The position numbers were made by a program, and so were the translations under genes. A model generated the notes under the pieces. It saw nothing but the letters and a program-made list of their open reading frames with translations. It searched no databases and was not told where the DNA came from. From assembly GCF_011045215.1 (NCBI RefSeq), contig NZ_CP049201.1: a stretch of DNA of 64,000 nucleotides, one strand, 5' to 3'. Position 1 is the stretch's first letter; each line of letters begins with the position of its first letter. This stretch comes from Escherichia coli (GTDB taxonomy: Bacteria > Pseudomonadota > Gammaproteobacteria > Enterobacterales > Enterobacteriaceae). Shown here piece by piece: positions 790 through 6,030 of this stretch.

Positions 790-3700
790 TTAAAGTGATT
801 TACGGCAGGCGGTCAGTTGGGGGCTGGAATCAGCGTCGCTTCCGCTCATACCGGTTAGCATCTGCACATAGTAGTGCCGACTGTAATCATCAGATTCACT
901 TGTCCAGTAAGCTCCCGGTGTAAATTGCGAATTACTGGAAAACGCTCCAACGTTCCCCCATTCACCATACAGCGATCCCTGCGTGCGTTTGTTTTCGCCA
1001 GACGTCAAATGTGTGATGCCAGGAAGATTATATCCATCATTTTTAGCATGACAGAGCGCATTGGCAGCTAGCCAGATATTGGTATGATTTCCATTATTCA
1101 CCCACCAGCCTTTCAGCTTAATTAAGGTCTGGTAGGTTGTACCTCCTTGTCGGGGAACAGCGCTTATTGTGACTGACGTTTGATCGCCGATATTTGCGAA
1201 AGAAACCTTACCTGAAGCATCGACAGACACCCAACCCTGTGAACTTGAAAACATATAATCATCAACGGTTTTACCCGCTTCAAAGTTATCATTGTTGAGT
1301 GTGTAATACGCCCCTGCAAAGCCTTCGCTCGGGAATTTAGCCGTTGAGAAGGTATGGTTGTTTGCAGTGACATGACCGGACATTTCTTTTATCGATTGGA
1401 TGAGATTCAGCGATATGCTTAAGTTTGCCTGATGAACCCCGTTCAGCATGGGAATGAGGGTCGCTGTTCCCTCTTTTCCGCCAGTGACAGTCACGGTGTA
1501 CTCGCCATAATTTCTTTGGCTGTAATCAATATCGCTCAACTTGAGAAAGTTCACGAAGGGGCCTGACTGGACAAATTCCAGATGATCAGACGTCACTATC
1601 GGGTTACCGTACTTGTCTTGCAATGTTAGCGTAAGTTTTGCGCTCTGCTGGTAGTCAGCCTTCAGAGTGTCAACATCGGATTTCAAAATTGACTTACTTT
1701 CATCGGCCGTGCCGGCAACCAATGTAATGGTTGCGGATTGGTTGGCTGTACCAGGAACTTGCACATTGACTGTTAAGGTTTCTGCTAATGTACTGGTTAT
1801 TGTCGCCGTGACTTGCCCGGACTGATCGGTACGCGTAGTTGGAATATTAACTACCGGGCTGCCTTTGGTGTCTAAGCCATGACTAACATCGACACCTTCA
1901 ACCGGGAATCCGTAATCATCTTCTACTCGTGAAGTGATGGTGCTGCTATCGATGCCGTCGGCGGTGATGGTGTCAGGAGAAGCCACGACGCTCACAACAT
2001 GTGCCGTTTTAGCATCTGCCTTAACCGCAACCGTTACCTGGCTCTGAACGGGAACATCTTTGCCCATTATGGCCGTAACGGTATAGACATTCACTTTGTC
2101 ACTGGTCAGTGTCACTTTGGCCTGACCTGACTGGTCAGTAAGGACTTCCCCTGTATTGCTTAGCGTTGCACCTTCAGGCGTTACGCTAAAGGTGATAATT
2201 TGCCCTGGCATCAATTCACCCCGCGCATTTCTCGCCGTTGCGGTCAGCGTAATACCCTCACTATTATGGACCGTGGTTTCTGGCTTCGATGATGTTAACT
2301 CGAGTTTGCCATTTGCCACATTCACGTCAACCTTACTACTACTGTTATTGTCCAGCGTTGCCGTCACCTGATAAACCCCAGGCTGGGTGCTAATAAGGTT
2401 AACGTACGCATAACCGTTATTATCGGTGTAAGCCGTATCGCCTATCGTAATGTTAGCTGTTGGCTGCGCACTTAATCTGACGCGTTGACCCGCTATTACA
2501 TTGTTAAACGCGTCCTGGACGAGTATCCGTAGCGTGATGTTTTCGCCAACCGTTATCGTTTTTTCGGCTCCGGTTATACTTATTACCTTCGCCGAACTTT
2601 CATCCGGCAGCACTGATAAACTAAACGTTTTATTATCGGAAGCTTGCGCTTTCCGGCTCACCACGACGTTATGTTGTCCGGCAATATTGCTGGTCATTGT
2701 TACCGTCGCCTGACCCAGCGTATTGGTGGTGACTTCTGTTTCGCTTAGAGTGACATCGTTACTCTGGAAAGTGACCAACTGGTCTTTAAGCGGATTTTGG
2801 TAAGCGTCCAGGATCGTTGCCGTCAGGGTACTCCCCGTACTGTTACCCGCAACAATGGAATTTAATGAGGCAGTCAGCGGCTGGAGCTGCGCACTGTTTG
2901 TATCCCCAATAAAAGTGACTTGCTGATAAGCAACGGTATTATTTCTGGTCAGCGTCGCCGTAACTGTAAACTCACCCGCTTTTGTGCCTCGCAATGTGAC
3001 CACGGCATCACCGTTTGCATCGGTGCGGGCGGTTTCACTACTTAGCGTGAAGTTCCCGGTCATGGAGGCTGGCAAGGTAAATTTCACATCCTCATCCGGC
3101 AACGGGTGTCCATAAACATCTTTCACACTGGCAGTCAGGGTAACGATATTTGTATTGTTAGCGATCGCACTGCCCGACCCAGCATTCAAGGTCATTACCG
3201 ATTGTTCCCTGTTTGGGACCACGGTGATCGTGACCGACTGGTGAATATTTTTATCCACCTCAAGCGAGGCATCGACGGAATAGCTACCAGCTTTTGAACT
3301 GGTCAGGTGCACCCGCACAATACCGGACTGGTCTGTTGTGGCGGTCGTGTTGTCCAGTTGCGAGCCACCAGGTGCCACAAAATTCACTTTCATATCTTTT
3401 AACGGGTTGTTATGAAAGTCTGTGACGATGGCGGTCAGAGTACTGCCCTGGCTGTTGCCAGCAATAATGGTATCTGGATCGGCAACCAGTTGTTTGAATT
3501 TTGGCGTACTCGAATCGCTAACAAATTTCGCAATTATCCGTTGTGAGAAACCATTTGGCAGCGTGGCGCTAATCGTATTTTCTTCCGCAACCTGACTTAC
3601 CATGTTGATTGTGGCAACACCATATGCATCCGTATTTTGCTGCGGCGGTTCGACAAATTCCGCGCTTCCTTTTTCATTCTTAAAGGTGACCTGATGATTT

Positions 3701-6030: not shown

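Follow-up and report, generated by a model that had tools for sequence, protein, structure and literature searches.

Assignment of a 1746-residue inverse autotransporter gene between kptA and yjiJ of Escherichia coli to iatD

Introduction

The gene lying between kptA and yjiJ in a 64,000-nucleotide stretch of Escherichia coli DNA (contig NZ_CP049201.1 of assembly GCF_011045215.1, hereafter the window) is, with a high degree of confidence, an intact orthologue of iatD, which encodes a type Ve secretion (inverse autotransporter) adhesin of E. coli. The gene is not new, having already been described and named, and annotation pipelines label its copies iatD. IatD has been cloned and its surface exposure established by immunofluorescence (Goh et al. 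2019, mSphere, PMC6714894), and its overexpression from an IPTG-inducible plasmid in K-12 was shown to promote biofilm formation strongly, while neither ECM-protein binding nor autoaggregation was seen (PMC6714894). A description of IatD has also been published in PMC7312957.

Identity of the gene

An earlier note on the same DNA had proposed an intimin/invasin-type inverse autotransporter of 1746 aa at this position, leaving undecided whether it belonged to FdeC, YeeJ or another family. The barrel, Ig and tip matches described below agree with that proposal on every testable point, and alignment points to IatD, not to FdeC or YeeJ. The ORF is single and uninterrupted, running from an ATG start to a TAA stop on the minus strand (1746 aa, 5241 bp; ORF list). 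The gene and the regions of its product are the following:

790..6030, minus strand: iatD coding sequence, 1746 codons plus the TAA stop (ORF list; at least 97% identity to named copies)
5896..6030, minus strand: leader with a Sec-type signal-peptide-like region at the N-terminus, aa 1-45 (sequence, hydropathy)
5677..5829, minus strand: predicted degenerate, periplasmic LysM domain, aa ~68-118 (homologues, AlphaFold2, Foldseek)
4741..5589, minus strand: inverse-autotransporter beta-barrel, aa 148-430 (Pfam and PDB profile matches)
1411..4725, minus strand: stalk, aa ~436-1540, in which a D00-like module is followed by Big_1/Invasin_D3 repeats, ~11 Ig-like modules in total (Pfam)
793..1410, minus strand: predicted tip superdomain, aa ~1541-1746, an invasin-D4-like Ig and a C-type-lectin-like domain (Pfam Invasin_D4, AlphaFold2, Foldseek)
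1051..1053, minus strand: codon of Cys1660, one partner in the presumed tip disulfide (present in at least 90% of the 44 tips aligned)
805..807, minus strand: codon of Cys1742, the other partner in that presumed disulfide (invariant in the 44 tips aligned)

NCBIfam has no IatD model, and the assignment is therefore based on the match to the prototype and on the names given by RefSeq. Across all 5241 bases the gene is 99.1% identical to RefSeq genes annotated as "iatD: inverse autotransporter IatD". In the complete-genome collection, of which the source strain is not a member, the best identity for any of the sequences compared is 99.1-99.4%. The prototype gene of strain SMS-3-5, EcSMS35_4876 (placed at L005:36675-41915), has the same length of 5241 bp and 1746 aa, and its product shares 1700 of 1746 residues with that of the window without a single gap; this 97.4%, corresponding to 46 substitutions, is slightly under the ">98%" range given for the seven genomes of Goh et al. 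(PMC6714894). No stop is found inside the 1746 codons, the best 120 database clusters stand at 99% identity with 1746-1747 aa, and the ORF is intact at 97-99% identity across many lineages, Shigella included. The gene order kptA, iatD, yjiJ is common to the window, SMS-3-5, O55:H7 CB9615 and O157:H7 strain 3384; beyond yjiJ, both SMS-3-5 and CB9615 carry an SdiA-regulated-domain gene and then a pentapeptide-repeat gene, as does the window, the product of the last being 657 aa in SMS-3-5 and 735 aa in the window.

The full-length protein search returned near-identical IatD clusters only, and a tip search of representatives was used for the diverse alignments. When the IatD passenger was run against one genome per species, no relative was detected, which means no more than that the species representatives lack close orthologues.

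Domain architecture

The earlier note had read the domain order as leader, LysM, barrel, Big-like repeats and lectin-like tip, and the order is as it described. The prototype was drawn in the same way, with a signal sequence (SignalP 4.1), LysM, beta-barrel, Big passenger and C-type lectin cap (PMC6714894).

The signal-like leader, judged from sequence features, comprises a 19-aa extension, a charged stretch (K23/R25/R26) and, over aa 27-42, a hydrophobic core of 16 residues; the A-T-A preceding Q46 is the putative cleavage site. In the aligned YeeJ N-terminus AAA precedes QGVV at the matching place, and the signal features are conserved in YeeJ-like homologues.

The LysM domain proved weaker than had been stated, although its presence is upheld by homologues, predicted structure and fold search. 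The segment's own match to Pfam LysM (PF01476) in a direct fragment scan is below threshold (E 0.067), and a Pfam scan of the N-terminal 1177 aa gave no LysM match; because of this subthreshold score, the domain was established through its homologues and its structure. PF01476 is found at E<=0.001 in 17 of the 27 aligned homologues of the segment, and phmmer matches the segment itself to the T. thermophilus LysM 4uz2 (E 0.0021). Moreover, the AlphaFold2 model of the segment has a strand-helix-helix-strand order (E23-27, H34-40, H45-51, E69-73; pLDDT 86-90), and the top PDB matches of this model in Foldseek are overwhelmingly LysM domains, including that of intimin (2MPW). Thus, by the profile of its homologues and the modelled beta-alpha-alpha-beta fold, aa ~68-118 is a LysM domain, for which peptidoglycan binding is predicted.

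The beta-barrel, for which prediction had been suggested as a check, is clearly recognised: Pfam IAT_beta (PF11924) matches aa 148-423 over the whole model length (E 2.9e-108), and aa 185-430 match the solved barrels of invasin (4e1t, E 4.8e-81) and intimin (4e1s, E 7.6e-66). The NCBIfam intimin model aligns through aa 529. Big_1/Invasin_D3 matches follow at aa 537-631, 745-836, 847-938, 946-1041, 1052-1135, 1164-1238, 1244-1333, 1346-1437 and 1443-1534, with a weak one at 640-714; these ten modules and an Invasin_D4 match all lie C-terminal of the barrel. In all, IatD has ~12 Ig-like modules. Judged from its sequence, IatD has the type Ve arrangement, an N-terminal barrel followed by a Big-domain passenger.

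The C-terminal tip

A Cys-containing, lectin-like tip had also been claimed, and both the modelled fold and the cysteine pair bear this out. The AlphaFold2 model of aa 1535-1746 is confident (pLDDT 95.7, pTM 0.89), and in Foldseek it matches invasin 1cwv (E 7.8e-13, TM 0.79, rmsd 2.5 A over 200 columns, identity 24%) and intimin 1f00 (E 7.2e-07, TM 0.66), as well as 1e5u; snake-venom and LOX-1 C-type lectin-like domains appear among the lower-ranked matches. Cys1660 and Cys1742 are the sole cysteines of the mature region, and Cys1660 aligns with the invasin Cys of "..RQCQGSD..". According to the model, the tip has the C-type-lectin-like fold of invasin D5 and intimin D3, with a presumed disulfide.

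This resemblance raises the question of whether IatD works like Yersinia invasin, its tip binding beta-1 integrins and leading to host-cell uptake. Such a role would be suggested by the best structural match of the tip, which is to invasin D4-D5 (the 1cwv match above), and by sequence homology of the passenger to 1cwv over aa 1255-1713 (E 5.5e-24). The tip identity, however, is only 24%, and neither of two invasin Asp residues is retained in the HMMER alignment to 1cwv. The Asp of "FATDKGFP", presumably the synergy residue Asp811, stands opposite an Ala. The Asp four residues past the disulfide Cys, which we take to be the integrin-binding Asp911 (Hamburger et al. 1999; Leong et al. 1995), stands opposite Asn1664, with an Asp at 1665 in IatD. 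These two replacements make an invasin-style integrin contact unlikely, and the absence of ECM-protein binding in the experiments of Goh et al. (PMC6714894) further counts against an invasin-like function, which is very improbable.

Proposed mechanism

What is known of intimin, invasin and YeeJ suggests the following route. The signal peptide would direct Sec passage of IatD, and the LysM domain would remain periplasmic, where it probably anchors IatD to peptidoglycan or dimerises it there, in the manner of intimin and YeeJ. The region aa ~148-430, whose homology to known barrels is demonstrated, would be placed in the outer membrane by BAM as a 12-stranded barrel. The C-terminal passenger would then thread out via this barrel and fold extracellularly into a stiff stalk of ~12 Ig-like domains, ending in the invasin-type Ig and the C-type-lectin-like tip, which a Cys1660-Cys1742 disulfide would close.

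Relation to other inverse autotransporters

The closest paralogue of IatD is YeeJ (K-12 b1978), which has the same domain plan and, according to the title of a paper cited in PMC6714894, binds peptidoglycan and promotes biofilm formation. One may ask whether iatD is no more than an allelic or recombinant form of YeeJ or IatC, with no family of its own. Positions 199-1940 of the gene, which encode LysM, the barrel and the first Ig modules, show ~77% identity to yeeJ, a match found in 1165 genomes; K-12 YeeJ, used instead of a yeeJ match truncated by IS1, is 48.9% identical in protein to IatD aa 20-1541; and the top NCBIfam model for IatD is IatC_Nterm (NF040978), aligned over aa 12-838 with 1121.4 bits. 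Nevertheless, yeeJ lies at another locus, beside asnT, and its product is 2339 aa as annotated in K-12, ~600 residues longer than IatD; many genomes carry both genes. The IatC score falls far below the model cutoff of 2400 bits, and the 97% identity to prototype IatD stands against both derivations. The idea is refuted and retains practically no probability. IatC, which also has LysM and a lectin cap, is length-variable (2459-2965 aa) and lies at another locus (PMC6714894).

The closest non-IatD representatives, which are YeeJ-like, show ~49% tip identity. Membership in the intimin family was rejected as well (NCBIfam NF033627, 362.1 bits vs a cutoff of 1400), and altogether the identities FdeC, YeeJ, IatC, intimin and SinH were discarded on NCBIfam scores and the YeeJ alignment.

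With invasin of Y. pseudotuberculosis (1cwv, 4e1t) IatD shares the barrel, the passenger homology, the tip fold and the disulfide Cys, and differs in its LysM-like domain, in the Ala and Asn already mentioned and in its ~12 Ig-like modules; invasin has four. With intimin (Eae of EPEC/EHEC; 1f00, 4e1s, 2mpw) it shares the barrel, tip fold and LysM; in contrast to intimin, however, it is encoded outside the LEE, with no Tir partner nearby, and its stalk is much longer.

Length constancy and the poly-C tract

The earlier note had also supposed that the Big modules create internal DNA repeats able to drive length variation; neither part of this holds. Tandem Repeats Finder detected no repeat within iatD, a repeat search of the gene returned just imperfect matches of 15-21 nt, and among exact direct repeats the longest has 12 nt (shuffled sequences: mean 11.5, maximum 13), so that no repeat above chance is present; in protein, no two Ig modules exceed 42% identity. 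Length is nearly constant: all of the best 120 database clusters have 1746 aa, bar one of 1747 aa, and genomic matches that cover the whole gene measure 5241-5245 bp, the upper value in one match. Neither was variation in repeat number reported for IatD by Goh et al. (PMC6714894).

A different kind of variation affects a homopolymeric tract:

5846..5852, minus strand: poly-C tract C7, gene nt 179-185, codons 60-62 (compared across strains)

The tract is C7 in the window and in O55:H7 CB9615, and interrupted in SMS-3-5. In O157:H7 strain 3384, the one O157:H7 genome in which the frameshift was verified directly, it is C8, leading to a stop at codon 67, and the gene is annotated as "frameshifted". 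The 83-mer containing this C8 (O157 probe) is matched exactly in 284 genomes, of ~640 carriers of iatD. A probe of 82 nt with the poly-C context of the window found 53 genomes only, an uninformative figure, since nearby SNPs presumably break the megablast seed word.

Natural in-frame C7 and out-of-frame C8 forms at the same site just past the putative signal peptide, the latter with its 284 exact matches, might suggest that iatD is a contingency gene under phase variation, with slippage at codons 60-62 turning it on and off. We consider this improbable. The C8 probe matches listed are mainly named O157:H7 strains, whereas all the O55:H7 genomes listed, together with O157:H7 strains 493/89 and LSU61, have the 5241 bp span; this distribution resembles a single inherited mutation rather than rapid switching. 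The interruption of the tract in SMS-3-5 also counts against phase variation, as does its length, seven residues being short for a contingency tract in E. coli.

The haplotype block

That the gene is absent from this position in K-12, as had been claimed, is confirmed by MG1655, in which kptA and yjiJ are only 12 bp apart with no such gene between them. The description of iatD as inserted between kptA and yjiJ is correct as to position, but too simple, since yjiJ and yjiK are themselves divergent and co-occur with iatD and espX6. The elements of the block are:

635..11170, no strand: alternative haplotype block with respect to K-12 (alignment to K-12), with iatD, yjiJ, yjiK-like and espX6-like genes
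6241-7419, strand not given: divergent yjiJ, within the block
7487-8329, strand not given: yjiK-like gene, within the block
8596-10803, strand not given: espX6-like effector gene, within the block

The flanks are 96-97.5% identical to K-12, whereas positions 6290-8324 are only 81.6% identical and the rest of the block is absent from it. Searches with iatD and with parts of the block gave 641, 636 and 639 of 5426 complete genomes (~12%). From these sequence comparisons, iatD, the ~82%-identical yjiJ-yjiK alleles and espX6 co-occur as one haplotype of ~10.5 kb.

A tentative and rather unlikely reading goes further. The block, comprising iatD, the ~18%-divergent yjiJ MFS-transporter gene, the SdiA-regulated-domain gene and espX6, which encodes a T3SS effector, would be an anciently diverged unit that E. 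coli acquired through homologous replacement, the donor being an Escherichia-like lineage not yet sampled. Joint action of its genes in colonising the host would maintain it as a two-state polymorphism, and the tip of IatD would recognise a receptor that is neither integrin nor Tir.

Elsewhere in the window, at 33.6-45 kb, an 11 kb insert corresponds to the hpa cluster, which is absent from strain 48, the closest core-genome match.

Flanking signals and expression

The following elements flank the gene:

6031..6240, minus strand: intergenic stretch preceding iatD, AT-rich (GC 0.348)
6036-6041, minus strand: Shine-Dalgarno GGAAGG, 5 nt upstream of the iatD ATG (sequence)
743..772, no strand: perfect 12-13 bp hairpin 18 nt past the iatD stop, a candidate two-way terminator (sequence, ViennaRNA)

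The sole match of the promoter consensus scan upstream of iatD, at 6226..6197 (9/12), is not above chance; promoter and terminator consensus counts were no higher than in shuffles, and the scan found no terminator-like site between yjiJ and iatD. The hairpin between the convergent kptA and iatD, unflagged by the consensus scan, has a folding energy of -22.6 kcal/mol on the iatD strand.

Whether iatD is ordinarily active is a matter separate from its identity, and an intact but cryptic gene, transcriptionally silent through, for example, H-NS repression, is a plausible state, though not the one that would be favoured. The low GC of the upstream region relative to the window (0.508) would suit such silencing, but the coding sequence itself, at 0.491, is close to the genome average, unlike low-GC H-NS targets. 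An inducible plasmid was needed by Goh et al. to see IatD, LeuO is implicated for IatB by their data, and H-NS control of FdeC is among the findings cited in their account (PMC6714894). Furthermore, the frameshift loss in at least the one O157:H7 genome checked directly implies that iatD is dispensable there; on the other hand, the preservation of the intact ORF in many lineages argues for selection on the protein.

Significance

Despite its publication, IatD is still poorly characterised, and functional inferences for the allele of the window derive from a single study in which an orthologue of 97% identity was overexpressed. Since 284 of the ~640 carriers match the frameshifted C8 probe exactly, fewer strains are able to make the protein than carriage counts of iatD suggest. 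The linkage of iatD with espX6 and the divergent yjiJ-yjiK suggests treating the block as a unit, and the confident tip model has a practical use, since aa 1535-1746 provide a defined construct for a receptor search.

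Gene and family identity

The ORF list of the window places the gene in the following setting, and since a frame of 1746 codons is too long to have arisen by chance, the coordinates and size read by the earlier note are exact:

82..666, plus strand: kptA, flanking iatD
790..6030, minus strand: iatD, a single unbroken frame of 1746 aa with an ATG start
6036-6041: Shine-Dalgarno GGAAGG, 5 bases ahead of the iatD ATG
6241..7419, minus strand: yjiJ, flanking iatD

The earlier note correctly recognized an inverse autotransporter, of intimin/invasin type, and left its family undecided. 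By sequence comparison the ORF is IatD, a gene that has been described in print and that annotation pipelines already call by this name. A megablast search of 5,426 complete E. coli genomes gave full-length matches in 638, the closest being 99.1% identical and all annotated 'iatD: inverse autotransporter IatD'. The prototype gene of strain SMS-3-5 (at 36675-41915 of its locus, L005) has neighbours matching those in the window, and the two proteins share 1700 of 1746 residues without gaps. The names iatA-D were given by Goh et al. (2019, mSphere; PMC6714894), with EcSMS35_4876 of SMS-3-5 (5,241 bp) as the IatD prototype; plasmid-expressed IatD was surface-exposed and promoted biofilm formation, and showed neither autoaggregation nor binding to extracellular-matrix proteins (PMC6714894). 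NCBIfam has no IatD model and every top-scoring model fell under its cutoff, which led to the rejection of IatC (IatC_Nterm, 1121 bits against a cutoff of 2400), intimin (362 against 1400) and SinH (311 against 999).

Domain architecture and secretion

The N-terminus consists of a 19-residue extension, followed by K23/R25/R26, a hydrophobic core (aa 27-42) and A-T-A ahead of Q46, at the position where aligned YeeJ-type sequences carry AAA ahead of QGVV; these features are consistent with a putative Sec signal peptide. The LysM proposed by the earlier note is supported by fold and homologues, but hardly by the protein's own Pfam match: a scan of the full N-terminal part returned no LysM, and the isolated fragment reached just E 0.067. 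Homologues were collected by searching 1.84 billion representatives; of the 27 N-termini aligned, 17 match PF01476 at E<=0.001 and 24 at E<=0.1. Moreover, an AlphaFold2 model of aa 46-190 shows a strand-helix-helix-strand arrangement at aa ~68-118 (pLDDT 86-90), whose top PDB matches in Foldseek are in their great majority LysM domains, that of the intimin periplasmic part (2MPW) among them. Homologue profiles, model and fold matches together thus identify this segment as a degenerate LysM, in which 'GALES' stands at the consensus 'GxGET'. The beta-barrel is well established by PF11924 (aa 148-423, E 2.9e-108) and by the solved barrels of invasin (E 4.8e-81) and intimin (E 7.6e-66) against aa 185-430.

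The stalk, described beforehand as many Big-like modules, is indeed composed of the following modules, by Pfam unless another model is named:

before aa 537: D00-like segment, covered by the intimin model
aa 537-631, 745-836, 847-938, 946-1041, 1052-1135: Big_1/Invasin_D3 modules
aa 640-714: weak Ig-module match
aa 1164-1238, 1244-1333, 1346-1437, 1443-1534: Big_1/Invasin_D3 modules

With the D4-like domain, the predicted total is about 12 Ig-like domains.

The expected Cys-containing lectin-like tip is likewise found. Pfam detects Invasin_D4, and invasin (1cwv) aligns with aa 1255-1713 (E 5.5e-24). A model of aa 1535-1746, built from an alignment of 44 tips (pLDDT 95.7, pTM 0.89), has invasin D4-D5 as its best PDB match (E 7.8e-13, TM 0.79, rmsd 2.5 A), with intimin 1f00 (E 7.2e-07) and, lower in the list, C-type lectin-like domains. 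Beyond the leader the protein has just two cysteines: C1660, aligned with the disulfide cysteine of invasin and present in at least 90% of the 44 tips, and C1742, which is invariant. Although the fold is common to both proteins, the counterparts of Asp811 and Asp911, the integrin-binding residues of invasin, are Ala and Asn in IatD, so that an invasin-like integrin contact appears unlikely.

The system most like IatD is YeeJ, with 77% DNA identity across LysM, barrel and first Ig modules and 48.9% protein identity over aa 20-1541; in the closest non-IatD representatives, which are YeeJ-like, tip identity is ~49%. However, YeeJ occupies a different locus and IatD is ~600 residues shorter. The standard type Ve pathway is the best-supported account of IatD export: its structural elements are assigned here by homology and modelling, and we infer the dynamic secretion steps from intimin, invasin and YeeJ.

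Constancy of length

The suggestion that internal DNA repeats might drive length variation is refuted. Tandem Repeats Finder detected no tandem repeats inside iatD, a repeat search gave only imperfect matches of 15-21 nt, and the longest exact direct repeat is 12 nt, against a mean of 11.5 and a maximum of 13 in shuffled sequences. Pairwise protein identity between Ig modules does not exceed 42%. The best 120 database clusters are all of 1746 aa, except one of 1747, and full-length genomic matches span 5241-5245 bp (5245 in match H24). Repeat number was also reported as invariant (PMC6714894).

Transcription signals

The 210 bp upstream of iatD are AT-rich (GC 0.348). A consensus scan gave no promoter-like matches above chance there and no terminator-like site separating yjiJ from iatD; read-through from yjiJ is possible. 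Eighteen nt past the stop codon, at 743-772, lies an inverted repeat with perfectly matched arms of 12-13 bp (AAAGGATACCCT..AGGGTATCCTTT), folding at about -22 kcal/mol. Although not flagged by the consensus scan, it is a plausible candidate two-way terminator common to the convergent kptA and iatD.

Other variable regions of the window

An 11 kb segment between btsT and tsr (33643-44964), missing from K-12, is the 4-hydroxyphenylacetate catabolic (hpa) cluster, with hpaC, B, A, X, I, D, E and G each above its NCBIfam cutoff; among E. coli strains, variation at this cluster is commonplace. At the K-12 site of yjiT, yjiV and mcrBC, window 19386-21621 holds a 697-aa ORF (19478-21571, plus strand) without an NCBIfam match. 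The hsdS gene (22187-23563) matches K-12 only partially, which suggests a different specificity subunit. This part of the window is the known hypervariable 'immigration control' region.

The O157:H7 frameshift

In O157:H7 strain 3384, iatD measures 5242 bp and is annotated as frameshifted. By alignment, the extra base maps to gene nt 179-185 (window 5846-5852), a poly-C tract that reads C7 both in the window and in O55:H7 CB9615, reads C8 in strain 3384, with a stop at codon 67, and is interrupted in SMS-3-5. An 83-nt C8 probe matched exactly in 284 complete genomes, the listed examples being mostly O157:H7, and the gene spans 5241 bp in every listed O55:H7 genome and in O157:H7 strains 493/89 and LSU61. 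Such a distribution suggests a single frameshift passed down within typical O157:H7, and not phase variation. Should all 284 C8 genomes be truncated, ~350 genomes (~6.5%) could have an intact iatD, in agreement with the 6% reported to carry the 'complete gene' (PMC6714894).

The haplotype block and its origin

Insertion between kptA and yjiJ, as read in the earlier note, holds for position and for absence from K-12, where 12 bp separate the two genes without iatD, but the difference from K-12 extends over a wider block with a divergent yjiJ-yjiK and espX6:

1-634: kptA side flank, 97.5% to K-12
635-6289: iatD and its flanks, missing from K-12
6290-8324: yjiJ-yjiK, 81.6% to K-12
8325-11170: 735-aa pentapeptide-repeat gene, annotated espX6 in O55:H7/O157:H7, missing from K-12
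11171 onward: yjiL side flank, 96% to K-12

As K-12 similarity ends at base 634, the left breakpoint falls in the final kptA codons (634-666); kptA has 194 aa in the window and SMS-3-5, and 184 aa in K-12. The yjiJ and yjiK-like (SdiA-regulated-domain) genes, 6241-8329, are ~82% identical to K-12 in DNA (YjiJ protein 89.8%), against 96-98% in the flanks. Their allele is bimodal in the 5,426 genomes: 636 are at >=95% to the window, 4,740 at 80-90% and none between. The espX6 segment is carried by 639 genomes and iatD by 641, near-equal counts which, each taken separately, are consistent with one ~10.5 kb haplotype in ~12% of genomes. Among the 5,426 complete RefSeq genomes, top identities to the window were 99.1% for iatD, 99.4% for yjiJ-yjiK and 99.3% for the opgB-yjjP core. 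The espX6-type gene (8596-10803, 735 aa, GC 0.356), whose annotation is that of a T3SS effector, contains 9.7 tandem copies of a 24-nt unit (8707-8938), and its product has 657 aa in SMS-3-5 and ~733-737 aa in O157 and O55.

A YjiJ scan of one genome per species returned E. whittamii, Escherichia sp. E1V33, two more 'E. coli' representatives and a MAG labelled Citrobacter. These Escherichia-lineage matches are all of the K-12-type allele (87-96% to K-12, 80.5-82.7% to the window) and lack iatD; in the two keeping kptA (L009, L010), it is immediately adjacent to yjiJ. In Citrobacter sedlakii and Salmonella, identity is ~70% to either allele, and a passenger scan of one genome per species found no IatD. 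The K-12-type arrangement would thus be the common Escherichia state, and the block was probably imported by replacement, with an unsampled lineage at greater distance as its donor, both readings coming from a scan that did not return E. albertii, E. fergusonii or E. marmotae; an ancient balanced polymorphism may also account for it.

At 9962-15248 of locus L031, Citrobacter sp. Cu233 carries an invasin-like inverse autotransporter of 1042 aa, with a lectin-like tip and 45% identity to IatD aa 38-737. A yjiJ homologue (61% identical) immediately precedes it on the same strand, and the remaining genes around it, for a LysR regulator and an ABC transporter, are unlike those in E. coli. This adjacency could be chance or an old linkage between yjiJ and inverse autotransporters.

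To what is known of IatD, haplotype linkage and the O157:H7 frameshift are modest additions.
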